Assembly (NCBI GenBank): GCA_041691135.1
Contig: JBEPVF010000001.1
Location: 1-64,000 of the forward strand
DNA length: 64,000 nucleotides
Direction: 5' to 3'
Source: Candidatus Peribacteria bacterium
Lineage (GTDB): Bacteria; Patescibacteriota; Gracilibacteria; Peribacterales; Peribacteraceae
The notes beneath the pieces were generated by a model. It was given only the letters and a program-made list of their open reading frames with translations, had not been told where the DNA came from and made no database searches. Made by a program: the position numbers and the translations under genes. Below, one piece after another: positions 1,592 to 19,681 of this stretch. Position 1 is the stretch's first letter; every line of letters begins with the position of its first letter.

Positions 1592-1599
1592 CCACTAAT

Positions 1600-2145
1600 C
1601 TACGACAAAATCGCAAGCATCTCGTCAACGATTGCCTCGGGAGTTTTGTTATCCGTTTGAATCACAAATGATGTGCCTGATTCCAATTGGAACGGTGTCG
1701 GATCGATCATCTGTTCTTCGATCAAATCCAAAAACTTCTGATCATCAGCTTCATCCCGTCCGCGTGCAATCGCTCTGGTATGCCTTAGTATTTTGCTCGT
1801 TTCCAACCAGAACATCACGATCTTATTGTCATGCTTTTTCGTTGCTTCCACTACGGCATCCAGTTCCTGCTGATTCCATATAAGACCGTCGATGATAATA
1901 TTTTGGCATTTTTCTTCGATAAACGTGTTCATCACTGCCAGACTATTTTTCAATTTCACGCGACCGATCTTCGCCCTTCCTTCCTCAATCTGCATGTCGA
2001 AGGGTTTGATGCGAAATAAGTCATCGGCTCCAAAAATGGCGACATCGTCTAGTTTATCCCTCAATAGCTGCGCGCAGGTTGTTTTGCCTGAGCCGCCAAA
2101 GCCACTGATCAGAATGATTCTTTGCATAGGTTTAAGAAAAGCCAT
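1600..2145 (-). CDS. P-loop nucleoside/nucleotide kinase-like (AAA family) protein
   Basis: IILISGFGGSGKTT Walker A, IIIDG Walker B-like, RAIARGR lid. Confidence 0.75.
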   Translation of the reverse strand: MAFLKPMQRIILISGFGGSGKTTCAQLLRDKLDDVAIFGADDLFRIKPFDMQIEEGRAKIGRVKLKNSLAVMNTFIEEKCQNIIIDGLIWNQQELDAVVEATKKHDNKIVMFWLETSKILRHTRAIARGRDEADDQKFLDLIEEQMIDPTPFQLESGTSFVIQTDNKTPEAIVDEMLAILS

Positions 2146-2168
2146 AGTAAATGCCCATTCTCAATACA

Positions 2169-2197
2169 TTGTACAGTAGAGCATTTTCCCATAAAAT
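2169..2197 (+). promoter_or_regulatory. sigma70-type promoter of the host tRNA-Tyr
   Basis: TTGTAC-17 bp-TAAAAT, 38 bp upstream of the tRNA 5' end. Confidence 0.55.
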
Positions 2198-2235
2198 CAC
2201 TTTAGTTGCAGGTCTGTGAGTGCTGTTCTTTATGT

Positions 2236-2307
2236 GGGTCGGTACCGAAGTGGTCAAACGGGCCTGACTGTAAATCAGGTGGCTTACGCCTTCGCTGGTT
2301 CGAGCCC
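2236..2307 (+). pseudogene. 5' part of the host tRNA-Tyr(GTA), split by island A (B arm of attL-A)
   Basis: GGGTCGG acceptor 5' strand, D arm, CCTGA-CTGTAAA-TCAGG anticodon arm, variable arm, GCTGG-TTCGAGC, then non-tRNA sequence; the missing 3' strand is at 18154-18169. Confidence 0.95.
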
Positions 2308-2332
2308 TTCCCAAACTAGTTCGACAAAGACG
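2283..2332. other. attL of island A (crossover dinucleotide CC at 2306-2307)
   Basis: AAACTAGTTCGACAAAGACG (2313-2332) is an 18/20 inverted repeat of 18129-18148; both lie 5 bp from a CC. Confidence 0.88.
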
Positions 2333-2448
2333 CGAGGCGAGAGGACATCAGAAGAGAAGTCTACGAGTTGAAATACCGTTACCCACAGTCACAATCAGTT
2401 CTTTCTCTCCATCGTTAAAACAGGTTAAAAAGCATTAGTTTTCATCAT

Positions 2449-2534
2449 GGGTCGGTAGCGAAGTGGTCAAACGCAGCAGACTGTAAATCTGCCGGCTTAC
2501 GCCTTCAAAGGTTCAAATCCTTTCCGGCCCACCA
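2449..2534 (+). tRNA. tRNA-Tyr(GTA), complete, element-encoded replacement copy
   Basis: Full cloverleaf: GGGTCGG/CCGGCCC acceptor, GCAGA-CTGTAAA-TCTGC, long variable arm, AAAGG-TTCAAAT-CCTTT, encoded ACCA. Confidence 0.97.
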
Positions 2535-2564
2535 GAATACATTTTAATCCTGATAATAACCTCT

Positions 2565-2729
2565 ATGGCAGACGAAATGACACCTCAGGAAGCCGAAGAG
2601 TTGTTTGTGAATCAAGCAGCCCATCTTTTGCTAGCACTGGCTGGCATCAAACATCTGCCCTCACCGAAGGCAAATCATCTTCAGATTGATGACGTTTTTC
2701 CTCCTGTCACACGAAAGAAATCCCGCTAA
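2565..2729 (+). CDS. small hypothetical protein (54 aa, MADEMTPQEAEELFVNQAAHLLL...)
   Basis: ORF read manually (below the track cutoff); first of a tight co-directional cluster. Confidence 0.5.
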   Translation: MADEMTPQEAEELFVNQAAHLLLALAGIKHLPSPKANHLQIDDVFPPVTRKKSR

Positions 2730-2732
2730 AAC

Positions 2733-2906
2733 ATGCCTCTTCGTAAGCCAACAATTAGGCCTGATGTTATCTATACCTATTCATCAGATAACGAGAAAAC
2801 TCAGCAATTGATGTTAGAAGTAGTAGAGTTGATTTTGTCTCAATCCGATAGGACTACAGATATACAAGCAATTCACCAAAACCAATGCCAAGAATTGCAA
2901 ACATAA
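2733..2906 (+). CDS. small hypothetical protein (57 aa, MPLRKPTIRPDVIYTYSSD...)
   Basis: ORF read manually, starts 3 bp after the previous stop. Confidence 0.45.
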   Translation: MPLRKPTIRPDVIYTYSSDNEKTQQLMLEVVELILSQSDRTTDIQAIHQNQCQELQT

Positions 2907-3652
2907 CTGATGGCGACGGCATTGTGCCTAGATGGCGAGGTTGGCCTATTCAGGCCTGGCAGGCTGACCGTTGTGAGTTTTGCTGTGAAGAAAATAAGAA
3001 GGGGTCGAGAAAAAGAAAATTGGAATACAACCGCTATAAGAAAATCGAGATTTACCGCTACGTGAAAAAGAAAGATAAAGAAAAATGTATTAAGTACATC
3101 GGAAAAGCCTTTGAGATTCAGCAGAAAAGCCCTGAAATAACGACTCAGCTTTTTCTTGCGATGCGAGGACGGATAACCTATTTCGATAGGACTAGTTGGT
3201 ATCGAAAAGTGAAATTCATCCCAGCAGCAGCAGTTGAACGGGCTTTAATGTCTGCCAATCAACACCTTTATTTCCATCCCTTCGTAGAAATAATTAAAAA
3301 GCGTGGGAGTTATTTCCTCATTCATATCTATGAAGTTGCCAATGTGCCAACCGAAGACATAAAGATAGAAATTGTTTTCTTGGCTGATACGTTGGACAAT
3401 CTTGGCCCAAAAGAAAACCATAGGAAAAACATCGAAAAAATTAAATCTATGATGGAAATAGCACGCAAAATAGATAAAGTATTTCCTTTATATGTAACAA
3501 CCGACCACACGACCAAGCCTGGACGTGTACGTATAAATACTCTGATAAGACGCAGCGAAAAATTCCTGACTTCGAAGGAAAAACGAGAGTTAAAAATGAA
3601 ACGCTATATAAAGAAGAGTTTTGATGATTTACCGCTAGATTGGATGCATTAA
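2885..3652 (+). CDS. uncharacterised island protein, homologous to 19793-20437
   Basis: 255-aa ORF; shares HP(F/I)V, G..FLIH.Y, K(I/V)EIV and P.Y(V/I)TT motifs with the island B protein. Confidence 0.75.
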   Translation: MPRIANITDGDGIVPRWRGWPIQAWQADRCEFCCEENKKGSRKRKLEYNRYKKIEIYRYVKKKDKEKCIKYIGKAFEIQQKSPEITTQLFLAMRGRITYFDRTSWYRKVKFIPAAAVERALMSANQHLYFHPFVEIIKKRGSYFLIHIYEVANVPTEDIKIEIVFLADTLDNLGPKENHRKNIEKIKSMMEIARKIDKVFPLYVTTDHTTKPGRVRINTLIRRSEKFLTSKEKRELKMKRYIKKSFDDLPLDWMH

Positions 3653-4278
3653 AAGATACGGGGATAATAGCGGCGTATATTTAACTGACAGATTCGTTCA
3701 AAAGGCTGTCTGCTTCCGATTTATGATTGATTCAACCTTCTTTGAAACCTTGCTTATGGCATTACTAAATATCCTTCAGGATTACAGTAGGCAATTGATG
3801 AATAGAATTATAGGCAGATAGAGACATATATTAACTGGTAAATTCATCAAATTTCTCAAAACTGCAAAAGTGCAAAAGTCTCTATATGAAGCCAATAAAC
3901 GCCCTACAAGGCCAGCGTTTTTTGGACAAGCCTCTGTGCCTGTTTAGAAAAATAAAAACTCAACGGCGACCCCAAAGAATGCGTCCACGACAAATCGAGT
4001 GTGTGAGATGGTCATGGCCAAGCGAATGATTTTAAAATCCTGAGTTGCAACGCGTGGTAACAGGGGTAAGCGTTCTAACTAGCCCTAGTGTTTTCTCTAG
4101 CCCTAGAGTTTCCACTTGGGCTGGTACGCAGATTTTCTTTATCTACCTACTGCTTAGTGGACTACATCGTACGATGGGGGGGGGTGCCATTCTACAATGG
4201 GGGCTGTCTTCGTTAATGTCGTTCCTATCAGAGGGGGTCTAAGTTGTAAGCCATGTAATCGAGGTCTATTGTCGGGAC

Positions 4279-4842
4279 ATGGATACGACACTCACGCCAT
4301 CTTGCAATGTAGGTCGTTCAGCCAACGTCTCTCTGGAAAGGATTCAGGAACGCAAAGAATTCATTATCGCCGCGTGTCTCGCTGGTCTGACCAAGGAAAG
4401 CATTCTTCGGCAAGTAAATTTACTTAGTGATGAAAAGCAATGGGGCAAACTCGGAAGTGTGCGAAGCATCGAACGCGCGATTGCTGGACACTTCAATGAG
4501 GAGAATAGAATGTCGCTTCCTGAACTTCAGTCCTATCAAGCTGGCTTGCGTGAAGCCGCTTTCGCGCAGCAGGAATTGCTAATTGAAAAAGCCGTGCTGC
4601 ATCTATATAAGACCAAAGAGTTTCAGCCCTTTGAATACATGCAGGAAATTCTTGGAATTTTTAGGATGATGCAGCGATTGGTTGAGAATCGAGGATGGAA
4701 TTATTCAAAACTGCCCGTGAAACGTATGGCGCAATGTGGATTCATCCCCCAGAGACGGCGGAACAAAGACGCATGGTCAGCTTGGAGTTGCCATATGGAA
4801 TATGAAAGAAAGCGAGAAGCTGAGGACACCTATAATGCATAA
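4279..4842 (+). CDS. HTH-containing hypothetical protein (terminase small subunit-like layout)
   Basis: RKEFIIAACLAGLTKESILRQVN...SVRSIERAI HTH-like segment followed by long helices. Confidence 0.5.
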   Translation: MDTTLTPSCNVGRSANVSLERIQERKEFIIAACLAGLTKESILRQVNLLSDEKQWGKLGSVRSIERAIAGHFNEENRMSLPELQSYQAGLREAAFAQQELLIEKAVLHLYKTKEFQPFEYMQEILGIFRMMQRLVENRGWNYSKLPVKRMAQCGFIPQRRRNKDAWSAWSCHMEYERKREAEDTYNA

Positions 4843-4919
4843 TAGGTGCGCCTTATTTTGCTTGTCCTGTAGCCAAAATGCTTGATTCTCCAGTGGAAAG
4901 ACACAAAAATAGGAGGTAA

Positions 4920-5177
4920 ATGGATACTTCAGGAGGCCAAATAAAACGGCCAGATTTGAACGTAGAAAAAATGCTGAAGTCACCACAGGAGATTGCCCTG
5001 CTTCAGCAAATTAGAGATTCCAACGATGCCATCAAGCATCTAGAAGCTGAGTATCTTTCCCTATTCAGGCAGGGGAAAATTGATGCCTGCGTGAAGAAGC
5101 ACAGGGGAATTGAGTTTGCTAAAAAATATATCAACGGACTCTGTGCGAAACATAAGAAACTCTACAGGCGACGGTAG
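4920..5177 (+). CDS. small basic helical hypothetical protein
   Basis: 85-aa ORF with a strong AGGAGGT RBS. Confidence 0.6.
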   Translation: MDTSGGQIKRPDLNVEKMLKSPQEIALLQQIRDSNDAIKHLEAEYLSLFRQGKIDACVKKHRGIEFAKKYINGLCAKHKKLYRRR

Positions 5178-5218
5178 ACCTATTATGCGTAATATGCCTT
5201 TCCCAATACTCCTAAAAT

Positions 5219-5986
5219 ATGACAAGTACCCCGACAGCAGAGGCATTAATCGGATACTCACGTATCTCAACTGATGGCCAACGAGACGGATATGGTATCA
5301 AAATTCAGGAGGAGAGAATCAATGCGTATGCCGAAGCGAAGGGTTTGCCCGTCATGCGTATGTTCAGAGACGAGGGCGTTAGCGGTTCCCTCAAAGACCG
5401 CCCTGCGCTGCTTCAGCTATTGAATTACATAGAAGAAAACAGGCACATGCAGCTGGGTGTTTGTTTCCTACGACTAGACCGCCTTTCGCGTTCCCTCGTC
5501 GTGTCCGAACAACTTATAGCTGATTTTCAGAAACGTGGAATTGCCGTTATCTCTCTAGAGGAACCTGACCTGTTATCCAACGAACCCAACCGCAAGTTAT
5601 TCAGACAATTTAAGGCCATGATGGCGGAGTACGAAAAGGAGATGATTACAGCCCGCATGAGTGCAGGTCGCTTGAAGAAGGTAGAAAGCGGCGGCGGTTA
5701 CGCTGGAGGTCGAGTAGCTTTCGGTTTCAGGGCAAACGGGGACGATTACGTCCCTGTTCCCGAGGAAATTACTGTAGTACGTGAGATATTTAGACTCCGT
5801 AGGAAGCCTCGAAACGGGGAAAGGCTAGGGTATCTGCGCATCGCTAACATCTTGAACGAAAAATACGCTGCCATCCGTACGTTTAACCCTATGACCGTGA
5901 GATACATAGCAAACAACCCGTTTTATAAAGGATTTCAGGGCTATGGGGCTGTCAGTAGATACGATGCGCGGCTGAAAGTGGCCTGA
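5219..5986 (+). CDS. serine recombinase (catalytic plus short recombinase domain, no zinc ribbon)
   Basis: GYSRISTDGQ catalytic Ser, DEGVSG..DRPAL, RLDRLSR, GGRVAFGF, NPFYKG. Confidence 0.93.
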   Translation: MTSTPTAEALIGYSRISTDGQRDGYGIKIQEERINAYAEAKGLPVMRMFRDEGVSGSLKDRPALLQLLNYIEENRHMQLGVCFLRLDRLSRSLVVSEQLIADFQKRGIAVISLEEPDLLSNEPNRKLFRQFKAMMAEYEKEMITARMSAGRLKKVESGGGYAGGRVAFGFRANGDDYVPVPEEITVVREIFRLRRKPRNGERLGYLRIANILNEKYAAIRTFNPMTVRYIANNPFYKGFQGYGAVSRYDARLKVA

Positions 5987-5989
5987 CCA

Positions 5990-6023
5990 AAGTATCAACT
6001 TAATTAAAACGAGGTTGATACTT
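5990..6023. terminator. hairpin between convergent genes
   Basis: AAGTATCAAC / GTTGATACTT 10-bp inverted repeat. Confidence 0.45.
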
Positions 6024-6062
6024 ATCTTTGAATAACCGCTTTACGAAGCGATATAAATGCTT

Positions 6063-6299
6063 TTACTTCTTTGTGAAGCTGAAAACGAATCCAACAAACC
6101 AATGCACGATATTGACGTAAAGCATGAAAATATCAGAGAAGATTGTTGGGCGAATCCGTATTGCGAGTACCGCTGCCAGAAACAAGAACAGGATGATTAT
6201 GATGCCTTTGATGGAAAATGACTGCTTTCTCATAAGTATGTCAACGTACCGCTTTCCTTCAGGATGCGCAAACTCTCTAGGGTCTAGGGGAGGAATCAT
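6063..6299 (-). CDS. small membrane protein
   Basis: 78 aa with two hydrophobic segments. Confidence 0.55.
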   Translation of the reverse strand: MIPPLDPREFAHPEGKRYVDILMRKQSFSIKGIIIILFLFLAAVLAIRIRPTIFSDIFMLYVNIVHWFVGFVFSFTKK

Positions 6300-6481
6300 A
6301 TAAAATACAACCGCAACCCGATACTCTTTATAAATGCGTGCCTGTCATTATTGGCATTCCTACGTCGTAAGGGGCAACCCTGCGCGGCCGTAGGACATGC
6401 CTTCAGGCATCGAGTACGGGTTGCCCGCCTGGGTTGTCCCTTTGGACTTGAAGGTGGTTTTATCCCCTTCATCTCTTTTTT

Positions 6482-7783
6482 ATGGATTTGGCTTATTTGA
6501 TGCGAAAGTGCGCAATCACTTTTGTCGTCCTTACACTTCTGCCCCTCCATGCGGGCGCAGCCTCTTTGAGTGATATTGCTGGAGATGCACATCAAAACTC
6601 CATCGAATTCTTGCAACAGCGCGGCGTGATTAGTGGCTATCCCGATGGCACATTTCGCCCACAGCAAACTCTCAATAGAGGAGAACTCATGAAAATTCTG
6701 GTTGCAGGGCAAGGAATTGACCCCGACGCTACAACTTATCGCAATTGTTTCAGCGACATTGGCAACGAGTGGTATGCAAAATATGTTTGCTACGCCTTAG
6801 AGAAGAAATGGGTGTTGGGTTATCCCGATGGAACCTTTCGTCCAGAACAGACGGTGACAAGGGCTGAGGCAATAAAAATGCTTATCACCACCCAAGGGAT
6901 TCCTGTCTCCGATAGCGCGCGACAATTTGCTGATGTTATGCCCTATGAATGGTTCTGCAACTACGTGAACGCGGGTGCAGCCAAAGGACTGATTGACACG
7001 GCTAGCCCTTATTTTAATCCGAATGATGGCATGACGCGCAGTGATGTAAGTGAAAGTATTTTTCGTGCCATCGCCATGAAAGAGACGGGTAAGACAAAAT
7101 TCACTAACGACCTTCGTTCACAACTTTCCCTAATTGCAGATTCTTCCGCTTCCAGTACCAGCAGCCATGCGCAAAATAGCATTCCATCCTCCCCGTTGTA
7201 TAACAACACGACGAGTTCTTCATCAAGTTCTAGTCGGGTTCAGCAGAATTCACTTACTCAGAATACCCCCCAGCACTCAGGTATTCTAACGGTTCAACAC
7301 AAAAATACTAGTTATACCATTCCGTACGGCACCAAAAAAGGCCTCTTCGACGAAATGTTCTTCAGCGCAATGAACGGCGACGTCAAAGTCACATCCATTC
7401 CCTTGAAACTCTCTCTATCCATTAACAACGTGCCTCGCAGCTTTATCAATGCAACCTTTTATTTGGAAGTAGATGGGTCTGTCGTACAAACCATCGTGGT
7501 AGATGGTTCGACGTACAACAAGGAAATTACGTTCAGTGACCCTAGCGGCTTGTTCACCATCCCTGATGGTGGTCAGAAGGACGTGAAGTTCTACCTTGAT
7601 GCTATAATCGACAAAGAGAGTTGTGGTGCGGACAATATTGACGACAGCATGTTCCCGACCAAAGTGGGGACGGACGCTAGTGGGTTTGGCAACGAAGCCT
7701 CCGAATTTACTGCCACTTTTTCAAAAATCGAATTTGTGGGGAGTTCAGCGTGTGGGAGTGAATATAATTGGTGGGAAAACTAA
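6482..7783 (+). CDS. secreted S-layer homology (SLH) domain protein
   Basis: Signal peptide, GYPDGTFRP.Q.(L/V).R.E SLH repeats, Ser-rich linker, beta-rich C-terminal domain. Confidence 0.9.
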   Translation: MDLAYLMRKCAITFVVLTLLPLHAGAASLSDIAGDAHQNSIEFLQQRGVISGYPDGTFRPQQTLNRGELMKILVAGQGIDPDATTYRNCFSDIGNEWYAKYVCYALEKKWVLGYPDGTFRPEQTVTRAEAIKMLITTQGIPVSDSARQFADVMPYEWFCNYVNAGAAKGLIDTASPYFNPNDGMTRSDVSESIFRAIAMKETGKTKFTNDLRSQLSLIADSSASSTSSHAQNSIPSSPLYNNTTSSSSSSSRVQQNSLTQNTPQHSGILTVQHKNTSYTIPYGTKKGLFDEMFFSAMNGDVKVTSIPLKLSLSINNVPRSFINATFYLEVDGSVVQTIVVDGSTYNKEITFSDPSGLFTIPDGGQKDVKFYLDAIIDKESCGADNIDDSMFPTKVGTDASGFGNEASEFTATFSKIEFVGSSACGSEYNWWEN

Positions 7784-7976
7784 AATTGAATGTGAGGAGG
7801 TTTTCAGTGATTGAAGGCCTCCTTAGTTCTTGGCAAGCCCCACAAATGCCAATGTCGCGTAACTCTTGGCACAATACCTGATGATTGTGTGGCGACTTGC
7901 ACGTTTTCGGGGCAGTAAAATATGCGAGGAGAAGCAAACTTGGGTTTTGGTGCATTTCCTTATAGAATTCGCATAA

Positions 7977-9914
7977 ATGAATATGAAAAAACCGCCAAAA
8001 CTCTCTGGCCAGTCATTCAACCCACAAGAGGCCTTATTAGGCCTTCTAAAGGAAAAATGCCCTGAAGCCTTCAGTGATGGGAAAATTGATGTAAAAAAAC
8101 TCAAAGCAACCCTTGGGGAGTCCGTTGATGTAAATGGTGAACGCTACGGTCTATCGTGGGCTGGAAAAAATGATTGTTTCAGGCATATTCAGGAACCGAC
8201 AACGGCAACCCTTAAGCCATTGCGACAGAAGTCCGTTGATTTCGATGGAACTAAAAATATCTTTATTGAGGGTGATAATTTACAGGCATTAAAAATTCTT
8301 CAGAAATCCTACTATGGTCAGGTTAAAACTATTTATATAGACCCTCCATATAATACGGGCAGTGATAGCTTTATCTATCCTGACCGTTTTCAGGAGTCAA
8401 AGGAAGAATATATGGAACGTATCGGTCAGAAGGAAGAAGGACACCTAACGCGTGACGGAATGTGGCAGAAAAACAGTAAGGACAATGGTCATTATCATAG
8501 TAATTGGCTTTCAATGATGTTTCCGCGACTGTTCCTAGCACGGAACCTCTTACGGCAAGATGGTGTTATTTTTGTTAGCATTGATGACCATGAGGTACAA
8601 AATTTAAAAATGATAATGGATGAAGTTTTTGGTCCTGACAATTGGGTTGGAACAATCGTTTGGAACAATGTTACTGACAACAACCCAACGAATATTGCTA
8701 TCGAACATGAATATATCCATTGTTACGCACGCAACAAATCAAGCCTAGAATCAGTTTGGAAATCCCGTTCTTCAGATGTTAAGGAAATGCTTGTAAAAGT
8801 TGGTACTGAATTGACGAAAAAATATAAAGACTCAGGAGGATTAGCAGATGCTTATCAAAAGTGGTTTAAGCAAAATAAAGACTATTTATGGCCTCTAGAT
8901 AGGTACAAATATATTGATAATGGTGGTGTTTATACAGGTAGCCAGAGTGTGCATAACCCTGGCAGAGAAGGCTACAGATATGACGTATTACATCCAGTTA
9001 CCAAAAAACCAACTAAGCAGCCTCTTATGGGCTATAGATTTCCCGAAGAGACAATGAAAAAACTTTTAGAGGAAGGTAAGATTTTATTTGGAGAGGATGA
9101 AAACAAGATTATTGAATTGAAAGTCTATGCTAGTGAATATGAAGACAAACTACCTAGTATCTTAACGTTAGATGGCAGGTTGGGGGCTTACGAATTAAGA
9201 GATTTATTTACTGGATACAAGAAACTTTTTGATAATCCAAAACCCACAGCAGTAGTCAAACAATTGCTTAGTTTTAATACGGGTGGAAATGATTTGATTT
9301 TAGATTTCTTTGCGGGTTCAGGAACCACTGCCGATGCGGTGATGCAATTGAATTCGGAAGACAAAGGTCAACGCAGGTGTATTTCGGTTCAACTACCCGA
9401 AGAGTGCGAGAAAGATAGTGAGGCAATGCAGGCTGGCTTTAAAACTATTGCAGATATAGCAATGGAACGGATTCGTCGTGCAGGAAAGAAATTTGCAAAT
9501 ACTGACGCTGGCTTTAAAACTTTTGTTGTTGACGATAGTAACTTCAAAATATGGCGTTCTGACTTGAAGGGTCCAGACGAATTGGCAGCACAAATGGAAA
9601 TGTTTATAGACAACGTAAAAAAGGAAAGTACGCAGGAAAATGTTCTATGTGAGTTAATGCTGAAAACAGGCTTAGACCTAAATACGTCAGTACAAAAAAT
9701 AGAAAGCAAGACTGGTGCTTATTTCAAGCTAAACGGTGGTAAATTGATTGTATGCATTCAGGAAGGCATTACTGAAGCATTGGCCGACAAGATATTAACT
9801 GAGAAGCCAGATAAATTTATCTGCTTGGATAAAGCATTCGAGAGTAATGACCAGTTAAAGACAAACGTATTGCTTCAGATGGAACAGGCAGGTGTTGATT
9901 TCCTTGTAATTTAA
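7977..9914 (+). CDS. mod: type III R-M methyltransferase subunit
   Basis: IEGDNL..LK, YIDPPYNTG, DFFAGSGTT, ERIRRA; followed by res. Confidence 0.95.
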   Translation: MNMKKPPKLSGQSFNPQEALLGLLKEKCPEAFSDGKIDVKKLKATLGESVDVNGERYGLSWAGKNDCFRHIQEPTTATLKPLRQKSVDFDGTKNIFIEGDNLQALKILQKSYYGQVKTIYIDPPYNTGSDSFIYPDRFQESKEEYMERIGQKEEGHLTRDGMWQKNSKDNGHYHSNWLSMMFPRLFLARNLLRQDGVIFVSIDDHEVQNLKMIMDEVFGPDNWVGTIVWNNVTDNNPTNIAIEHEYIHCYARNKSSLESVWKSRSSDVKEMLVKVGTELTKKYKDSGGLADAYQKWFKQNKDYLWPLDRYKYIDNGGVYTGSQSVHNPGREGYRYDVLHPVTKKPTKQPLMGYRFPEETMKKLLEEGKILFGEDENKIIELKVYASEYEDKLPSILTLDGRLGAYELRDLFTGYKKLFDNPKPTAVVKQLLSFNTGGNDLILDFFAGSGTTADAVMQLNSEDKGQRRCISVQLPEECEKDSEAMQAGFKTIADIAMERIRRAGKKFANTDAGFKTFVVDDSNFKIWRSDLKGPDELAAQMEMFIDNVKKESTQENVLCELMLKTGLDLNTSVQKIESKTGAYFKLNGGKLIVCIQEGITEALADKILTEKPDKFICLDKAFESNDQLKTNVLLQMEQAGVDFLVI

Positions 9915-9915
9915 A

Positions 9916-11607: not shown

Positions 11608-11608
11608 A

Positions 11609-14296
11609 ATGAAGCTTCACTTTGACCCAAATCAGGCATATCAATTGGACGCAATCAATGCGATTGTGGACGTTTTCAGAGGGCAGCCGCTTGAAAAGGG
11701 CGACTTCGCCGTGGAAATGAAGCAGCCCGACGGCCAAATGAAAATTGAGGGTGATTTAGCTATTGGTAATTGTCTTCAGCTAGACCAAAGCACGATTGTC
11801 CAAAACTTGAATGCTATTCAGGAAAGAAATGGTGTGGAGAAAACAATGGTTCCAGTTGGATTCGTACAGCCCTTTAATGCCCCGATGAAACAGACTGCTA
11901 TCTGGAAAGAAGGTATGAATTTCTCCGTAGAGATGGAGACAGGGACAGGAAAGACGTATGTATATCTTCGCACCATTCACGAATTGCATCGCACCTATGG
12001 CTTCAGAAAATTTGTCATCGTTGTTCCCAGTGTCGCTATCAAAGAGGGTGTTATGAAGAATCTAGAAATCACCAAGGAACACTTCGGACTGCTGTTTGGG
12101 AACCCTGAAATGGATTTCTATGTGTACGACTCAAAGAAGCGCGGATTACTTCGTCAGTTCGCCACAACGAATGCCCTGCAAATCCTCGTCATCAATATTG
12201 ATTCCTTCGCCAAAGAAGACACGAATATCATCTACCAGAAAAGCGACTGGGGAGTACCTATTCGTTATGTACAGGGCGTAAGGCCGATTGTGATTGTGGA
12301 TGAACCCCAGAATATGGAAACGGACATACGTAAGAAGGCCATAGAAAATCTGCATCCCCTTTGCACTCTGCGCTACAGCGCAACCCACAAATACCATTAC
12401 AACTTGGTCTACAAGCTTGACCCTGTGAAAGCCTACGACTTGGGACTGGTGAAGAAAATTGAAGTGGATAGCGTGGTGACTGCGGATAACTTCAATGCCG
12501 CATTCGCACAACTCAAAGCTGTCACTAGCAAAAAAATGACGGTTACAGCAAAGCTGGCCATTGATGTTGCGGCAGATAGTGGTGTGAAACGAAAAGACGT
12601 TACAGTTCGAGTTGGGGCAGACCTCTACACGCTTTCAGAGAATCGTGACGTGTACCGTGACGGCTTTATCGTGGAGGAGATAGACGTGACAGGCCAGTTC
12701 ATTCGTTTCAGTAATGGCCAGCAGCTTTCCGTAGGACAGACTCAGGGGGAACTCACGGATGATGTTCAAAAGTTTCAGTTGAAGAAGGCTATCCAAAATC
12801 ATTTGGAGAAGGAACGGAAGATGGCAGGAATGGGTATTAAGGTGCTTACACTGTTCTTTATTGACCGAGTATCGAATTACCGTAGTTACGAGGCCGACAC
12901 ATTGAAGAAGGGCAAATTTGCAGTCTGGTTCGAGGAATTGTGCCGCGAGATGCTTACTCGGCCTCAATACAAAGGATTACTGCAATCCGACCTGACGGCG
13001 GTGCATAACGGCTATTTTTCCGAGGATAAGAAAGGTAACTGGAAGGATACGCGTGGTGATACTCAGGCCGACGACGACACTTACAGTTTAATTATGAGGG
13101 ACAAGGAAAAACTATTGTCACTCGATACGCCCCTGCGATTCATCTTCAGCCACTCGGCATTACGAGAAGGCTGGGATAACCCGAATGTCTTTCAAATTTG
13201 TACGCTGAACGAAAGCACTTCGGAGATGAAAAAGCGTCAGGAAATCGGACGTGGATTGCGCTTGCCTGTGAATCAGGAGGGCAACCGCATATTTGATGAG
13301 AATATCAACGTACTCACGGTAGTGGCCAACGAAAGCTACGACGATTTCGCCAGAAAGCTGCAAACCGAAATTGAGGACGACTGCGGTGTGGACTTCACTG
13401 GTCGTATCAAGAAAAAAGAAGATAAGCGTAAGGTAACGCTTCGCAAGGGCTATCAACTCGATGCAAATTTTAAAGACTTGTGGGAGAGGATTAAGCACAA
13501 AACTCGCTATAAGGTTCAGTACTCCACGGATGGCCTTGTAGAGAGTGCGGGACAAACTCTCTCAGAAATCACGGTAACGCCTCCGCGTATTCGTTCTGTG
13601 CGCGTTCAACTAGGCATGTCATCTGAAGGAATTGAAGCCAAATTACTTTCGGCTGATGAAAAATTGGTGCAAGTAGAGATTAATGCGGTTCCAGATATTC
13701 TTGGGGGCATTCAGGGTAAAACCAAACTTAGCAGAGATACGATTTTTAGAATTATTAAACGTTCGGGAAAACTCAAAGAAATCCTAAAGAATCCGCAACA
13801 ATTCATGGACAGTGCGGCAACCATCATCACAACCACCATGAAGAAACTGATGGTGGATGGAATCAAATATGAAAAGCTAGCAGGACAAGAATGGGCAATG
13901 CGTTTATTTGAAAATGAGGAATTAGAGGCATACTTGTCAGATTTATACACAGTTCAACAGCCTAAAAAAACTCTATGGGATTATCTTCAGGTGGATTCCA
14001 CCGTGGAAAGCACCTTCGCCAAAGACTTAGAAAGCCGCGAAGATGTGCAGTTCTTCATCAAGTTGCCGTGGTGGTTCAAGATTGAAACTCCCATTGGGGG
14101 CTACAATCCCGACTGGGCAATTGTCTTTGAAAACGATAAGCGCGTGTATTTTGTGGCTGAAACCAAATCATCACTTAATGCAGATGACTTGAGAGTGCAG
14201 GAGGAATTGAAAATACAATGTGGTGCGAGGCATTTCGCCACCATGGACGACGTAAAATTTCAGAAAGTGACAAAACTAAGTGAAATCATTCTCTGA
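11609..14296 (+). CDS. res: type III R-M restriction subunit (helicase-nuclease)
   Basis: VEMETGTGKTYVYL, DEPQ, LRYSATH, ALREGWDNPNVFQIC, QEIGRGLRL, YNPDW..AETK; start reset to the ATG at 11609. Confidence 0.96.
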   Translation: MKLHFDPNQAYQLDAINAIVDVFRGQPLEKGDFAVEMKQPDGQMKIEGDLAIGNCLQLDQSTIVQNLNAIQERNGVEKTMVPVGFVQPFNAPMKQTAIWKEGMNFSVEMETGTGKTYVYLRTIHELHRTYGFRKFVIVVPSVAIKEGVMKNLEITKEHFGLLFGNPEMDFYVYDSKKRGLLRQFATTNALQILVINIDSFAKEDTNIIYQKSDWGVPIRYVQGVRPIVIVDEPQNMETDIRKKAIENLHPLCTLRYSATHKYHYNLVYKLDPVKAYDLGLVKKIEVDSVVTADNFNAAFAQLKAVTSKKMTVTAKLAIDVAADSGVKRKDVTVRVGADLYTLSENRDVYRDGFIVEEIDVTGQFIRFSNGQQLSVGQTQGELTDDVQKFQLKKAIQNHLEKERKMAGMGIKVLTLFFIDRVSNYRSYEADTLKKGKFAVWFEELCREMLTRPQYKGLLQSDLTAVHNGYFSEDKKGNWKDTRGDTQADDDTYSLIMRDKEKLLSLDTPLRFIFSHSALREGWDNPNVFQICTLNESTSEMKKRQEIGRGLRLPVNQEGNRIFDENINVLTVVANESYDDFARKLQTEIEDDCGVDFTGRIKKKEDKRKVTLRKGYQLDANFKDLWERIKHKTRYKVQYSTDGLVESAGQTLSEITVTPPRIRSVRVQLGMSSEGIEAKLLSADEKLVQVEINAVPDILGGIQGKTKLSRDTIFRIIKRSGKLKEILKNPQQFMDSAATIITTTMKKLMVDGIKYEKLAGQEWAMRLFENEELEAYLSDLYTVQQPKKTLWDYLQVDSTVESTFAKDLESREDVQFFIKLPWWFKIETPIGGYNPDWAIVFENDKRVYFVAETKSSLNADDLRVQEELKIQCGARHFATMDDVKFQKVTKLSEIIL

Positions 14297-14527
14297 TTTG
14301 TAGGCATCACACAAACGCTATCGAATCCCTACAATACCCTTTACGGGATTTAAATTTCCAGGACATACATTTTACTGTGAGTACAACGTCAGGGGCGCCT
14401 CAATTGAAGCTAGGGGCATACAGGGGCATGTCCAATAGTAAGGCATAAAGCTGTGACGGGGTTTAGGGTAGTTCAGTTGTGAATTTCGCGTTTGTACACG
14501 AGGACAAGCAAGCTATTCTGGGTTGCA

Positions 14528-16051
14528 ATGTACATAACAGCGTCGATTCTTTACGATTACCTGTGCTGTCCGCATCGCGTTTGGAGAGATAGGTACGGCC
14601 CCCAAGATGAAAAAATACAAGAAACAAACCCTTTTGTTTCATTGCTTTGGGAAAGAGGCGTAAGGCATGAGAAAGAAATGGTAATGAAATTGGGTGAATT
14701 AGTGGATATTAGCAAAGGTTCAATCGAGGAACGCATCGCCCAGACGACAGAGGCCATGAAGAATGACACGCCGCTTATCTATCAGGGTGTCATCATGTAC
14801 GGCGACTTGCTGGGCATCCCTGACTTGCTGCGAAAGTTACCTGATGGTTTCTATGTACCTGTGGATATTAAATCAGGGTCAGGAATGGAAGGCGCGGACG
14901 AAGAGGTGGGAGAAGAAGGAAAACCTAAAAAACACTATGCGGTTCAACTCTGCTTGTACGTCGAAGTGCTTTGCCGTCTGGGGTTTGCAAAAGAGAAGCG
15001 CGGCATCATTTTGGACATAGACAGACAAGAGGTGGAATACATCCTCGACCAACCGCGAGGAAAAAAGTCCCCTGAGACGTGGTGGGATTTATACGAAGAT
15101 TTGAAAGAAGAAGTGAAACCGCTTCTTCAGGGGACGAAGAAAAATAAGCCCGCGATGGCTGGGTGCTGCAAGCTGTGTCCGTGGTTCAACAGTTGCAAGA
15201 AATGGTGCAAAGAATCTGATGACCTCACATCGTTGCCTGGACTTGGGCGAAGCAGAAGGGACACGATTAACGATGATTTGAAGATTGAAACCGTAACCCA
15301 GCTTATCTCTCTTGATGTCCAAACAGTGCTGGAAAGGAAAAAGAAGGAGAAAGTGTTTATGAGTGGGATAGCGGAGAAAACGCTTACCAGCTTCCTAAAA
15401 CGTGCAACGATTTTCAAAGTAACCCAGAAGCCCGTTCTGTATCAGCCTGTTACCTTTCCAGTCGTCTCAACGGAGTTGTTTTTTGACATTGAAGACGACC
15501 CGACACAGGAATTTGTCTATCTGCATGGCGTTTATGAAAGAAAAGGGAAGGAGGAGAAATTTTATTCTTTTGTGGCTAAAGACCAGACTTCAGAGGCGGA
15601 AGAAGCATCTTGGAAAGATTTTTGGAACTATATCTGGTCGCTTCCGAAGGATGATTACGCGGTGTATTACTATTCTCATCACGAAAAGACGACGTACACG
15701 CGCATGAGAAAGAAGTACCCAACTGTTATTGATGAAAACACTCTCAATGCGTTTTTTGAGAATCCCAATGTCATTGACCTGTATTCGGCAGTTGTGAGGC
15801 CATTCACCGACTGGCCGCTGTGGAGTTATTCGCTGAAAGAAATAGCACAGTATCTTGGTTTCAAATGGAGAGATGAAACCCCGTCAGGCGCACTTTCGAT
15901 TCAATGGTTTAACGATTACATGGAAACAAAGGACGAAAGTATTTTGAAAAGAATTCTTGAATACAACGAGGATGACTGCAAAGCCACAATGGTTTTGAAG
16001 GATGGTTTGGCTAAATTGGCTTTGGAAACTGTCAAAGTGCCAATAAAATGA
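14528..16051 (+). CDS. TM0106-family RecB-like nuclease with RNase H-like domain
   Basis: CPHR, GIPDLL..PVDIK, QLCLY, C..CPW...C, FFDIE, YSLK, YNEDDC. Confidence 0.88.
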   Translation: MYITASILYDYLCCPHRVWRDRYGPQDEKIQETNPFVSLLWERGVRHEKEMVMKLGELVDISKGSIEERIAQTTEAMKNDTPLIYQGVIMYGDLLGIPDLLRKLPDGFYVPVDIKSGSGMEGADEEVGEEGKPKKHYAVQLCLYVEVLCRLGFAKEKRGIILDIDRQEVEYILDQPRGKKSPETWWDLYEDLKEEVKPLLQGTKKNKPAMAGCCKLCPWFNSCKKWCKESDDLTSLPGLGRSRRDTINDDLKIETVTQLISLDVQTVLERKKKEKVFMSGIAEKTLTSFLKRATIFKVTQKPVLYQPVTFPVVSTELFFDIEDDPTQEFVYLHGVYERKGKEEKFYSFVAKDQTSEAEEASWKDFWNYIWSLPKDDYAVYYYSHHEKTTYTRMRKKYPTVIDENTLNAFFENPNVIDLYSAVVRPFTDWPLWSYSLKEIAQYLGFKWRDETPSGALSIQWFNDYMETKDESILKRILEYNEDDCKATMVLKDGLAKLALETVKVPIK

Positions 16052-16111
16052 TTTCAGAATCGCGAAATTGCTTTTGAAAAGCAGTCGAAAGACATTATTA
16101 TAAAAGTGCAA

Positions 16112-16345
16112 ATGTCCAAAACTCCTACACCAAAGACTAAATCATTTTGTGTTATTGGTGCTGTCCAATATGAGATGCTTGAAACGCACGAAAAAAACTT
16201 TCAAATTGCAAGCTGGTTCCATCGCCATTGTTCGCATTCAGAGGACAACCCCGAATTGGAACAGGTGATGCTAGATAAGACGCGACCGAATGGTTACCAC
16301 GAAGACGGCGACAAAATTTATGTCCTTTCACGTATGCCAAAATGA
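16112..16345 (+). CDS. small hypothetical protein translationally coupled to LSR-A
   Basis: ATGA overlap with the integrase start at 16342. Confidence 0.5.
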   Translation: MSKTPTPKTKSFCVIGAVQYEMLETHEKNFQIASWFHRHCSHSEDNPELEQVMLDKTRPNGYHEDGDKIYVLSRMPK

Positions 16346-18123
16346 AAGATAGCAGAATTGAGTTTCGTGCTGTGGGGTACATTAGAGAATCCACCAGAAC
16401 CCAAACTGTTGGAGGCTATCGTGCGGGTTATCAGAAAGAGAGAATTGAAGGTTATTGTAGAAAGCATGGTTTTAAACTTGTGAAAATGTTTGAGGATTCA
16501 GGGAGTGGGAAAGATGTCAGACATAGGCCTAACTTTGAGATGATGCTTGCCTATGCGAAAGCAAATGATATTCAGTTTATCGTTGTTGAAGACATCAACA
16601 GGTTTTACCGCGAGTTTAAAGATGGCATGGACTTAGAAAAAAAGCTTTACGATGAAAACGACATCATTGCAATCGACCCTGAGGATTACAACCCGCGTGA
16701 ATACAAGGAATCAGGATTCAGCCCCCAAGCGTGGCGGCAACGCGCACATCGTCGCGTGGATGCTGAGGGAGAAAGAAGGGACATAATCGAAAGAGTGACT
16801 CAGGGGTATCAAAAGAAAAAAGACGGCCAGATGTACGTTGGGCCGCTGCCTTATGCTGTTGAGTGGGTTGACCCTGATTTCCCAAAATACATCAGGTATA
16901 AAAAACATGAAGGCAAGGTGGTGCAGGAAATTTTTAACTTGTACATGACTGGAATGGGCTGCACTGCGATTGCCAAACAGCTAAACGAGAAAGGCTACGT
17001 CATCGAGGAAGGTAAAAGAGTTGAATTGACACGTAAGAGTGGCCTTCCCTATTTCAAGCGCATCACAAAAAACGTACCTTTTACGTTTGACCGTATCCGC
17101 CATATTTTAAGTAATAAAACCTACATTGGTCGCCAAAACACAGGCACTTCGCTACGTTTGTTTACACTCGATGCAAACGACGAAGAGGTCTTAATATCGC
17201 CATTAATTGATGATGATACTTTCAGTAAGGCGAGGGAACAATTAAAGATAAATCGACGTGGCAAAAACCCTAACAATAAAAATAGTAGACAGACAAACCG
17301 TGTTTATCTCTTTCAGGGCATCGTGAGACACGCCGATTGTGGTAGCCCAATGTACGGGGTTCCTGAAAAGTTACGCAACGGCGAAGTTACAAGGCGATAT
17401 CAATGTTCTGCGAGTAAACAGGGGACATGTAATGCTAGGCTGAAGTCACTACGTGCTGATGAAGTTGAATCCCAAATAATTGAGTTATTAAAAGAGATAA
17501 AATTAAAGAGTATTGGGGAAATAGAGTCTGAGTTACGGGAGATTATTAAAATTACCGCAGCCGAGTTAAGCAGGCCACAATCGTTTGAAAATCTAACTCT
17601 TGCCGACAAGGCCGAATTAAAATCTTTAAAAGACGCATTGGGTAATGCTTATGATTGGTTGCTTGCCGAACAAAAGACGGTCATGGAGGAAAGACTGCAA
17701 AAAATTGAACAGAAAGCTAAGGACAAAAGCGTTGAAATGCTTAGGTACTACGATTTCCAAGAGATGAGGCGTATGTTTGTTGACTTATCACAATCATTCA
17801 CCGACCTTCAAAATCTCGCTGCCCGTCAGGAATTACTCAGTATCTTGTTTCAGAAAGTTTTGATTGGGAAGCCGTTGCCCAAGCAACCACATGAACATGC
17901 CAAGGCATTTCACTGGATGAAAGGCGCGGTAGCCGATTATGAGGCATTCAGGGATGCAACAAAGCTAAAAACATTGTTACGACAATTCACGCCCATGCTT
18001 TTTGAGGAGATTCATGTTGGTGACGGCGATGAAGATTCACCAATTAAGAAGGTAATCTTTAAGCCCACAGGGCTATTCCTGTTGATGACTGATGGAGTTC
18101 GTAACTCTAAAAAAAAGAGTTGA
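16342..18123 (+). CDS. large serine recombinase/integrase of island A (LSR-A)
   Basis: YIREST catalytic motif, RP.FE.ML, N..YIG, HADCGSPM...YQC...C zinc ribbon, coiled coil; abuts attR-A. Confidence 0.92.
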   Translation: MKDSRIEFRAVGYIRESTRTQTVGGYRAGYQKERIEGYCRKHGFKLVKMFEDSGSGKDVRHRPNFEMMLAYAKANDIQFIVVEDINRFYREFKDGMDLEKKLYDENDIIAIDPEDYNPREYKESGFSPQAWRQRAHRRVDAEGERRDIIERVTQGYQKKKDGQMYVGPLPYAVEWVDPDFPKYIRYKKHEGKVVQEIFNLYMTGMGCTAIAKQLNEKGYVIEEGKRVELTRKSGLPYFKRITKNVPFTFDRIRHILSNKTYIGRQNTGTSLRLFTLDANDEEVLISPLIDDDTFSKAREQLKINRRGKNPNNKNSRQTNRVYLFQGIVRHADCGSPMYGVPEKLRNGEVTRRYQCSASKQGTCNARLKSLRADEVESQIIELLKEIKLKSIGEIESELREIIKITAAELSRPQSFENLTLADKAELKSLKDALGNAYDWLLAEQKTVMEERLQKIEQKAKDKSVEMLRYYDFQEMRRMFVDLSQSFTDLQNLAARQELLSILFQKVLIGKPLPKQPHEHAKAFHWMKGAVADYEAFRDATKLKTLLRQFTPMLFEEIHVGDGDEDSPIKKVIFKPTGLFLLMTDGVRNSKKKS

Positions 18124-18124
18124 G

Positions 18125-19681
18125 TCACCGTCTTTGTCGAATCAGTTTAACAACCAGCCCGGCCCACCATTCAAAACAGACAGCCTTCTTCTCAGCCTGA
18201 CGGAAAGGAGCTCTTGGCTGCCAGCTCAAGATTTTTGCTTGTACGGAATAGTTCGATGCAAAGGAATTGAGAATCGCCTGCCTGATTTTGGGCGATCCAT
18301 ATAGAAATGCTTCTCGAAGCAGATCCATGAGTTCAAAGCTGCGTATGACTTTTTCGATCCACGCTGTACCTCTATCGTGGAGCTGGTTTGTAGCAGCCTG
18401 CAATTCATCGCGCCGTGCTTTGAGCTGGGATAGCTGGACATCTACGGCATCAGCCATGCCCATCTCGACTGCCTTATCGCGCTGACGAAAGAGAGAACCT
18501 ATTTCCTGCTGCACCTTGGCGTATTCGGCTTGCAGGCTTTCTCGACGTTCAATTTCGTTCTCGCTTTTCTCCTCGTGGATTTTCAACAGTCTTTCCCTAA
18601 GGTTTCCTAAATCGCTCTGGCTCAAAGTCACCTCAGAAAGAATGCCATGCAATTGAGCCTCTACTTCGTTTTGTGAGATTATGACTCCACATTTGGTTTC
18701 TGAGTTTTTGCATTCGTAGTAAATGTACTTTCCCTTAGCTCGATATGAGCAAAGTGAGCGGCCGCAGAGCGGGCAACGAAGTACGTTTGCGTAATGGAAA
18801 AGCTCACGGAGTGTTGGAATCTTTGGACGAGCCGCATTGCTGTTTCGCCCCGCAAGGACAAGTTGCGTACGATTCCACAGGTCTTCAGGCACGATGGCTT
18901 TGTGACGCCCCTTGCTAATTTTGTTGTTGAACCGGACGCAGCCTTTGTAGATGGGGTCATGGAGGATGTTGTTAATGGCTGTGACTCCTAGGACATTGTT
19001 TCTCTTGCTCCGGAGGCCAATTCTTTTCGCTTCTTTTACCAAGTCTCGCAAGGAATAGCTGCCGCTTATAACTAGTTGAAAGAGGCGTAGGATATGCGGA
19101 GCACGCTCAGGATCCACTTCCAATACAGGAGTGCCATCGGGCAGTTTGATGTTGTTGTACCCCGGTCCCACCGGCCCCATATGTTTCCCTTCCGCAGAAC
19201 GCATTTCCATAGCTTTCAAAATACGGTCGCCTTTGTCCCTACTGTCTTTCCAGCTCATGGCGTTCTCTAGGGTGAGCATGAAGATGGTGTTGGAGTCTGC
19301 ACCTGTGTAGCGTTTCCCGTCTGTGATATCCATCGCCTGGATTCCTCCATCGACGAGGCGCTGCACAAAGGCCCCTGAATCAGCGTGGTTGCGGCTGATG
19401 CGATTGGGATGAACGACGATGATCCCTCTCACCTCTCCCTTGTCTGCCATCGTCATTATCTGATTGAACGTGGGACGACCCGGACGGTATGCGCTCTGCG
19501 ACTCTTCCATTACTTTCAAAGGATAATGAGCTGTGTCTGGCAGTGTTGCGTGATGCCCCTCGATCATTTGTCGTTGGTCTTGCAATGTATGCACCTGCTT
19601 ATCTTCTGTATCGGTTGATTTTCGACAGTACCCGATCCAGTACTGAGTGGCAGCCTGTGTTTTCTTCTTTTTCCGTGGCAT
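18125..19681 (-). CDS. large serine recombinase/integrase of island B (LSR-B), with a non-native C-terminus
   Basis: YCRKST, PNRISRN, DPIYKG, H.AIV, CPLCG...YYEC...C; the last codons read antisense through the tRNA 3' end and attR-A. Confidence 0.93.
   Translation of the reverse strand: MPRKKKKTQAATQYWIGYCRKSTDTEDKQVHTLQDQRQMIEGHHATLPDTAHYPLKVMEESQSAYRPGRPTFNQIMTMADKGEVRGIIVVHPNRISRNHADSGAFVQRLVDGGIQAMDITDGKRYTGADSNTIFMLTLENAMSWKDSRDKGDRILKAMEMRSAEGKHMGPVGPGYNNIKLPDGTPVLEVDPERAPHILRLFQLVISGSYSLRDLVKEAKRIGLRSKRNNVLGVTAINNILHDPIYKGCVRFNNKISKGRHKAIVPEDLWNRTQLVLAGRNSNAARPKIPTLRELFHYANVLRCPLCGRSLCSYRAKGKYIYYECKNSETKCGVIISQNEVEAQLHGILSEVTLSQSDLGNLRERLLKIHEEKSENEIERRESLQAEYAKVQQEIGSLFRQRDKAVEMGMADAVDVQLSQLKARRDELQAATNQLHDRGTAWIEKVIRSFELMDLLREAFLYGSPKIRQAILNSFASNYSVQAKILSWQPRAPFRQAEKKAVCFEWWAGLVVKLIRQRR
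18129..18180. other. attR of island A (CC at 18154-18155), overlapping the remnant of attL of island B
   Basis: CGTCTTTGTCGAATCAGTTT-AACAA-CC followed by the tRNA 3' strand. Confidence 0.88.
18154..18169 (+). pseudogene. 3' part of the split host tRNA-Tyr
   Basis: CCAGC-CCGGCCC-ACCA pairs with GCTGG (2294-2298) and GGGTCGG (2236-2242); it does not match the T-stem of the copy at 2449. Confidence 0.93.

Follow-up and report, generated by a model that had tools for sequence, protein, structure and literature searches.

We analyzed a 64,000-nucleotide stretch of Candidatus Peribacteria bacterium DNA (contig JBEPVF010000001.1, positions 1 to 64,000; hereafter the window), in which a 15,848-bp non-phage integrative island (2308-18155, island A) interrupts a tRNA-Tyr(GTA) gene. 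Features are on the + strand unless a minus strand is given. The 5' piece of the host gene (2236-2307) starts with the acceptor 5' strand and breaks off two bases into the T-stem 3' strand; these two bases, CC 2306-2307, are the crossover. The crossover CC recurs at 18154-18155, followed by the 14-nt 3' piece of the gene (18156-18169), which comprises the T-stem 3' strand, the acceptor 3' strand and ACCA. Within the island lie a complete tRNA-Tyr(GTA) with an encoded CCA (2449-2534), beginning 141 nt inside the left junction (after CC), and the gene of a proposed integrase, the 593-aa large serine recombinase (LSR) LSR-A (16342-18123), whose open reading frame (ORF) stops 5 nt before the right arm of the attachment site.

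In the window, ARAGORN called tRNA-Tyr(GTA) twice, at 2235-2319 and at 2449-2534. The first call is forced, with mismatches in the T stem and the acceptor stem; Rfam scored this broken copy at 35.6 bits, with non-standard pairs flagged in both stems, and the island copy at 62.5 bits. Joining 2236-2307 and 18156-18169 at the common CC by scripted slicing gives a perfect cloverleaf of 86 nt, and the coordinates at which an earlier note, made from the sequence alone, had placed the split gene and its rejoining all hold. The gene is divided into 72 nt at the left attachment site (attL) and 14 nt at the right one (attR), with CC as the sole overlap; the bases on either side of CC differ between the two junctions, so that CC is the entire shared core. 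By our own numbering, we take it to correspond to positions 61-62 of the usual tRNA scheme. No direct repeat of the tRNA 3' (or 5') segment was found at the far island boundary, the tRNA at the near boundary is not intact, and searches of the window and the whole assembly recovered no other copy of the tRNA-Tyr 3' segment beyond chance-level words. With only CC common to the two pieces, we set aside a classical tRNA-site island, in which the gene is restored by a duplicated end.

Two arms directly adjoin the CC copies on the island side. The attL arm (2308-2332), which is nearly identical to that of the related element G519, and the attR arm (18129-18153), which aligns in register with the arms of six other elements, match as inverted complements at 20 of 25 positions, with 18 of 20 matching in their outer part. 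The symmetric 25-bp arms with an 18/20 inverted repeat that the earlier note described are therefore real: the binomial P of the overall match is 1.2e-8, none of 2,000,000 random in-register window pairs reached 20 (the best gave 18), and a separate repeat search recovered the same arm pair (I10). As the two halves of the phage-type attachment site (attP), they form imperfect inverted arms around a 2-bp non-palindromic core, and the core alone is common to the bacterial site (attB), the arrangement of a serine-integrase attP.

LSR-A contains a resolvase catalytic domain (Pfam Resolvase, PF00239, 8e-17, residues 10-161), a recombinase domain (Recombinase, PF07508, 6e-15, residues 189-302) and a zinc ribbon (Zn_ribbon_recom, PF13408, 1.1e-9, residues 323-383), and on these three domains it is classified as a predicted large serine recombinase. 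Residues R15, S17 and Q21 are invariant across six homologues, and S17 is presumably the nucleophile, judging by the R-x-S-T-x-x-Q motif. In the PDB, LSR-A matches by sequence no more than the catalytic domains of two proteins, TnpX and a member of the resolvase family. The arms around CC, the three domains and the recurrence of the arrangement in six further elements bear out the earlier view of this site as serine-integrase attP geometry, and the spacings given with it (LSR-A ending 5 bp before attR, the complete tRNA-Tyr 141 bp inside attL) are both correct.

The island tRNA-Tyr is 80.2% identical to the rejoined host gene, from which it differs in the T arm. The genome assembly is a metagenome-assembled genome (MAG) of 35 contigs, 1.74 Mb and 92% completeness, and a tRNA scan of all 35 contigs returned 51 tRNA and transfer-messenger RNA (tmRNA) calls, only two of which are tRNA-Tyr. 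The island copy at 2449-2534 is the only intact tRNA-Tyr detected in the 1.74-Mb assembly, the outcome of a genome-wide check that the earlier note had called for. Likewise, in G519, G446, G296 and G274, all of which carry related elements, a DNA search detected the island tRNA-Tyr as the only full-length copy.

Comparison with related genomes indicates what the site looked like before insertion. Island A is an insertion into a native tRNA-Tyr gene, because the relatives' tRNA-Tyr genes have matching 3' ends, the rejoined gene closely resembles a same-genus native gene, gene order is retained in a relative and the G+C content of the island is distinct. All 14 tRNA-Tyr genes from related genomes share the 3' end of the rejoined gene (14/14), eight of the 14 also share its GCTGG/CCAGC T stem, and that of L009 equals it over the final 37 nt with no differences; the relatives' empty site thus matches the rejoined sequence, as the earlier note required. 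Identity to the same-genus native tRNA-Tyr is 94.2% for the rejoined host gene versus 76.7% for the island copy. In the same-genus genome G003, an intact tRNA-Tyr comes after the upstream transporter gene, a homologue of window 40.9-50.5 kb lies about 4.3 kb further along, and the synteny of the upstream gene with tRNA-Tyr is retained. Island A is missing from four of four same-genus genomes, and its G+C content is 0.39-0.47 versus 0.53 in the left flank. As a separate observation, the segment from the upstream permease gene to window ~44.6 kb is apparently inverted relative to the window in G004 (L018, L019) and G001 (L004, L020), and the inverted segment has a tRNA-Tyr at one end (comparison with window 1-50000).

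LSR-A homologues were sought in genomes of the class, the family and the family of G296, and in genome and metagenome contig collections. Six further elements were found, in four MAGs and two metagenome contigs: G519 (84% identity to LSR-A), L039 (64%), G274 (45-46%), G446 (44%), L040 (44-46%) and G296 (with L042; 35-38%). Another homologue, L041 (42%), ends at a contig edge, and viral contigs yielded only distant recombinases (22-31% identity). The family is rare, occurring in 3 of 401 sampled class genomes and 4 of 200 family genomes, counts that include the window's own genome, and in 1 of 43 genomes of the G296 family, which is G296 itself.

These elements share one order at their right end. 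In all seven elements with a readable 3' flank (7/7), the LSR stop is followed within about 10 nt or less by an in-register arm, then by CC, three variable bases and CCGGCCCACCA, the invariant tRNA-Tyr acceptor strand plus ACCA at attR. The left junction is visible in the window, G296, G519 and G446, and in each of the four (4/4) the host tRNA-Tyr ends at CC, with a complete internal tRNA-Tyr 141, 125, 1247 and 140 nt inside, respectively; arm complementarity, in the same order, is 20, 11, 21 and 17 of 25. In the window, G519 and G446, the two junctions have exactly CC as their shared core. The structure is complete on a single contig in G519 (L087, G519:C50), where the host piece lies at 3937-4008 and the internal tRNA-Tyr at 5256-5341 in reverse-complement coordinates. 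G274 and L039 have a complete tRNA-Tyr at the left of the island, and their left junction falls beyond the contig or locus end. The island tRNA and the host gene are not identical in the window, G296 and G446, and the left spacers of the window and G446 are colinear and similar. Additionally, an extra copy of the final 11-12 nt of tRNA-Tyr lies past the attR piece in both G274 (about 110 nt; L036/L027, G274:C9) and G296 (about 1.5 kb; L037, G296:C25, 4256 and 5783); these may be remnants of other elements at the same tRNA.

Given the anatomy of the locus, the empty site in relatives, the recurrence in six further elements and the sole-copy status of the island tRNA, we consider it very probable that an LSR-A island was inserted in tRNA-Tyr at CC and carries its own replacement tRNA. 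In the mechanism that we propose, LSR-A would insert the island into tRNA-Tyr, a gene that the host has only once. Its dimers would bind an attP of about 50 bp, made up of the two 25-nt inverted arms, and also an attB consisting of the T arm, the acceptor 3' strand and the trailer of tRNA-Tyr; strand exchange with a 2-bp stagger at the non-palindromic CC would then leave the 72-nt 5' piece at attL and move the 14-nt 3' piece to attR. The gene would be split because a serine integrase needs only 2 bp of identity and this attP does not mimic the tRNA, and for the latter reason it would not be rebuilt from a duplicated end. A whole tRNA would be carried because loss of the only tRNA-Tyr would kill the host, and the complete copy inside attL would compensate for the split gene. 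Precise excision would rebuild the host tRNA-Tyr. The island tRNA is presumably expressed and charged, and the island is presumably still mobile. The wide spacing in G519 hints at an insertion between attL and the tRNA, and it would favor an own promoter for the island tRNA over the host tRNA promoter, downstream of which the earlier note had placed it.

Several observations weigh against this interpretation. Promoter-like sigma-70 hits before the host piece (2170-2197) and in the island (2368-2395) showed no excess over shuffled sequences, and a second tRNA-Tyr could be unassembled in a genome of this completeness. The arms of G296 match at only 11 of 25 positions, and its shared core is 4 nt (TCCT), not 2. 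No tRNA was found in the available 10 kb upstream in L040, and the left tRNA of G274 and L039 shares the T stem of the attR piece, so that calling it island-borne there is our inference. In L039 (10001-11831), the LSR frame is broken near the C-terminus, with an ORF of 517 aa and later parts in other frames, reflecting either decay or sequencing error. The island tRNA of G519 is identical to the rejoined host gene (86/86), which needs an extra step such as gene conversion; the identity suggests either conversion between the broken piece and the island copy or a very recent capture. Extra recombinases are present, a tyrosine recombinase in G519 and G446 and a short serine recombinase in the window. 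Catalysis by LSR-A at CC is itself argued from anatomy and recurrence, and is probable.

Excision evidence also counts on this side. One public run (X1) contains the stretch, and its Logan contigs, not its reads, were placed on 1000-19500; X1 may be the source sample and is then not independent data, and its contigs drop rare forms. Within these limits, neither excision joint (2307>18156 or 18155>2308) occurs among the X1 contigs, only the integrated form is present, and the island may be fixed. This bears on an alternative that we regard as possible but rather unlikely, namely that the island integrated via LSR-A at CC and can no longer excise, its tRNA now being the resident tRNA-Tyr. The X1 depth of 20.3 in the island and 17.2 in the left flank fits such a fossil, as do the broken LSR frame of L039, the decayed appearance of the adjacent LSR-B island with no detectable far-end repeat, and the homogenized tRNA copies of G519, which are compatible with long residence. 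However, the LSR-A frame is full-length with conserved catalytic residues, the arms still match at 20 of 25 positions, and the absence of the island from all four same-genus genomes together with its still distinct G+C content points to a recent arrival.

It seems improbable that another recombinase integrated the island with LSR-A as a passenger. Candidates are the short serine recombinase within island A (5219-5986), LSR-B, which abuts the same tRNA piece, and the Xer-like tyrosine recombinases of the G519 and G446 islands; moreover, the accessible part of one study describes large and small serine recombinases as proposed or known to cooperate in Dehalococcoides ssrA islands and SCCmec (PMC3146451). 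Yet the LSR-A homologue is alone in occurring in every one of the seven elements, in each case about 10 nt or less from the arm, whereas the short serine recombinase occurs in only two of the seven, and Pfam, applied to two islands for a tyrosine recombinase, found one in each. A 2-bp core with inverted arms is the geometry of a serine rather than a tyrosine integrase, and LSR-B lies outside the arms and is 21% identical to LSR-A.

A chimeric metagenome assembly fusing two organisms at similar tRNA-Tyr genes has a negligible chance of being the explanation: although the MAG is in 35 contigs and the X1 Logan contigs are interrupted within the island tRNA, at 2477-2506, where other organisms' tRNA-Tyr genes overlap, the junctions 2307/2308 and 18155/18156 are each bridged within one contig (record 5 covers 1270-2506, record 6 covers 2477-19500) and show no assembly break of the kind that would have undone the earlier reading, matching inverted arms stand at both ends, the structure recurs in independent assemblies, including the single G519 contig, and a 14-nt 3' piece 15.8 kb away is not expected from a tRNA chimera.

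Returning to the LSR-A island as a replacement-carrying element, its gene content separates into a shared backbone and a variable cargo. Five parts make up the backbone: the tRNA; three ORFs, of 255, 187 and 85 aa; a recombinase slot; a 79-aa ORF; and the LSR. No family was found for the three ORFs. The 255-aa ORF (2885-3652), which had no match in Pfam, PHROGs or PADLOC, has homologues in the G519 (71%) and G274 (30%) islands; the 187-aa ORF (4279-4842) has them in G446 (66%), G274 (35%) and G296 (31%), and the 85-aa ORF (4920-5177) in G519 (62%) and G446 (44%). The recombinase slot is occupied in the window (5219-5986) and in G296 by a short serine recombinase, which in the window is 255 aa long and in Pfam shows a resolvase domain and the start of a recombinase domain with no zinc ribbon; its G296 homologue is of similar length (58% identity). 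In G519 (L087:11920-12843(-)) and G446 (L088:9177-10106(-)), an Xer-like tyrosine recombinase takes the slot instead. These slot recombinases may be an interchangeable resolution module for a circular form.

The 79-aa ORF (16106-16345) overlaps the LSR-A start with its stop (ATGA), and a homologue lies directly upstream of the LSR in five of the six other elements. Like the other small ORFs, it has no Pfam family. Prediction of its complex with LSR-A from our own alignments gave a median score of 0.59, with 0.00 for the best of three controls, a result that weakly suggests contact, since, according to the tool, 58 of 80 solved complexes and also 2 of 110 mismatched pairs attain the mark used, and those that do so at scores of 0.60 or lower are only 7 of the 80 solved complexes but both mismatches. 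Contacts agreed between runs at 69% or more, with a partner predicted local distance difference test (pLDDT) value of at least 66. The 79-aa protein, its gene being coupled to the LSR-A start, is a candidate accessory or directionality factor.

The cargo of island A, by its domain matches, appears to be devoted to anti-phage defense: a type III restriction-modification (RM) system, an OLD-family nuclease and a Cas4-like nuclease. Both components of type III RM are present, the methyltransferase Mod (7977-9914; Pfam N6_N4_Mtase; PADLOC MTase_III, 2.5e-185) and the restriction enzyme Res (11564-14296; Pfam ResIII, RE_endonuc; PADLOC REase_III, 5.6e-294), with an OLD-family ATPase/TOPRIM nuclease gene between them (9916-11607; Pfam AAA_15, OLD-like_TOPRIM; PADLOC Old, 3.1e-45). 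Downstream, a 519-aa protein (14492-16051) has a Cas4-like N-terminal part and an RNase_H_2 C-terminal domain (Pfam, PADLOC), and upstream of Mod the cargo includes an SLH-domain surface protein (6482-7783; Pfam PF00395, three repeats). The relatives carry other cargo that is likewise defense-like, with type III RM in L040, a C5 methylase and an AAA_13 protein in G519, and ResIII helicases in G446.

We also considered whether island A belongs to a known class of mobile element. No phage capsid, terminase, portal or tail genes were found by Pfam among the large ORFs, small family-less ORFs remaining, and PHROGs gave, for seven island ORFs (10 proteins submitted), integrase matches only, plus one weak tail match of the SLH protein; with no phage structural family in either database, a prophage identity was not adopted. 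No relaxase, coupling protein or type IV secretion gene occurs among the Pfam matches of the island ORFs, and the island was not assigned to conjugative or mobilizable elements; the family-less 255-, 187- and 85-aa backbone ORFs could encode a novel mobilization function.

Immediately beyond island A lies a second large serine recombinase gene, LSR-B (518 aa, 18125-19681, minus strand), a neighbor that does not belong to the island although its reading frame crosses the tRNA 3' piece in antisense and reaches the end of island A; its C-terminal WWAG is encoded antisense of the tRNA 3' end. Relatives of LSR-B occur in 133 of 401 class genomes. At 23 of 29 fetched loci (L050-L078), the LSR-B-type gene converges on an intact tRNA gene, whose 3' end it abuts or overlaps, and two of the remaining six are cut by a contig end. 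The tRNA isotypes involved are Tyr, Asn, Val, Ala, Gln, Asp, Trp, Ser, Gly, Arg and Thr, with LSR-B-type genes beside tRNA-Tyr in the window, G002, G007 and G295. A serine integrase at a tRNA gene is thus nothing unusual in this class, a point that the earlier note did not raise, and this makes the target of LSR-A less surprising and leaves its break-and-replace mode still surprising. A long tRNA 3'-end repeat was found at one of 14 LSR-B-type loci examined (up to 20 kb fetched), the G315 island (L083, G315:C3), where a tRNA-Asn at 31-105 has a 34-nt direct repeat of 94% identity at 13622-13655, 13.5 kb away. With no clear repeat at the other 13 of 14 loci, we dropped the idea that LSR-B-type islands generally restore the tRNA by duplication.

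The region following island A (window 18170-~39500, about 21 kb) is absent at this locus in the same-genus genomes G001, G003 and G004. It contains LSR-B, three family-less ORFs, a copper module (an HMA-DsbD-cupredoxin protein and a P-type ATPase), a two-component system, an HlyD/ABC/MacB efflux set and an ABC transporter. This region may be a second, decayed island in tandem; no far-end tRNA-Tyr 3' repeat for an LSR-B island was found in the window or the whole assembly. MacB/FtsX-type permease paralogues were also noted at 1-347, 377-1591 and 35787-37016, the last inside the extra 21-kb region, together with a 148-nt repeat family (D1) at 1, 1245 and 36685.

The proposed functional replacement of an essential single-copy tRNA by a horizontal copy, in a reduced genome of the Candidate Phyla Radiation (CPR), bears on tRNA gene turnover and on the dependence of a host on an island. 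Such a case would contradict two working rules: that tRNA sites are used by tyrosine integrases, which rebuild the gene by means of a duplicated end, and that serine integrases disrupt protein genes that the host can spare. We tentatively suggest, with somewhat less than even confidence, that serine integrases are the usual users of tRNA sites across this class and that the LSR-A lineage obligately destroys the only tRNA-Tyr and installs a foreign one. On that reading, every arrival of such an island would horizontally replace an essential tRNA, and the incoming copy could then homogenize with that of the host or recombine into it, a possibility hinted at by the 86/86 identity in G519; a turnover route for essential tRNA genes in minimal genomes would then be provided by mobile elements. 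The elements also add a family of defense islands with a defined integrase, defined ends and variable cargo. Furthermore, attB is a stretch of tRNA conserved in the tRNA-Tyr genes of the examined relatives, which makes LSR-A with its arms a candidate tool for site-specific integration in bacteria with almost no genetics so far; this would offer CPR genetics a ready-made, naturally conserved attB/integrase pair.

Our literature search, which ran on full texts with supplements and most subscription journals outside it, found no report of a serine integrase that both breaks a tRNA gene and brings a complete substitute, nor any report of this in CPR bacteria. The available portions of PMC12884075, PMC8092301, PMC3091744, PMC5704250 and PMC3146451 likewise describe neither a tRNA-splitting serine integrase with a replacement nor a serine integrase at CPR tRNA genes, and the main text of Durrant et al. 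(PMC10083194) contains the word 'tRNA' 0 times, while its supplements could contain such cases. A parallel with actinobacteriophages that the earlier note had drawn found no backing: in the accessible part of PMC8092301, tRNA-overlapping attB sites are among those of tyrosine integrases.

One comparison is within the window itself. LSR-B-type integrases are, like LSR-A, large serine recombinases beside tRNA genes, including tRNA-Tyr; unlike LSR-A, they are, at 23 of 29 loci, convergent with an intact tRNA whose 3' end they abut or overlap, and they are far more widespread (133/401 versus 3/401 genomes). Among characterized enzymes, phiC31, Bxb1, A118, TnpX and CcrAB are what we take to be the classical large serine integrases. 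LSR-A resembles this group in its combination of resolvase, recombinase and zinc-ribbon domains, in its short attachment sites with imperfect arms and a 2-bp non-palindromic core, in the position of its gene beside attP and in the disruption of the target gene. Some of the classical enzymes are named in the accessible parts of PMC12884075 and PMC5704250. For integrative and mobilizable elements with serine recombinases, the consulted part of PMC5704250 states that integration disrupts genes dispensable to the host, whereas here the only tRNA-Tyr is hit and its replacement travels with the element.

Elements with tyrosine integrases at tRNA genes share with island A a conserved tRNA landing site and the preservation of tRNA function. 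According to the available text of PMC8092301 and PMC5704250, however, they share 25-76 bp with their target and rebuild the 3' end of the gene, rarely the 5' end, whereas island A shares 2 bp and replaces the whole gene. The Dehalococcoides ssrA islands are the nearest described system. As described in the accessible part of PMC3146451, they have a CcrB-like serine integrase, DsiB, with inferred insertion in the T loop of the tmRNA, and they bring a 20-bp copy of the gene end, embedded in dsiB, that leaves a direct repeat. On that description, they resemble the LSR-A elements in that a family of large serine recombinases is associated with a tRNA-like gene that is essential and occurs once, in their non-phage cargo and tandem arrangement, and in a small second serine recombinase (DsiA); the likeness lies in the described arrangement, and the target is tmRNA there versus tRNA-Tyr here. 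They differ in that their target gene stays whole, whereas here it is split, only CC is shared, and a separate whole tRNA is supplied. The new part of the system described here is that a tRNA gene is broken and replaced as a whole; a serine integrase beside a tRNA gene is common in the class.

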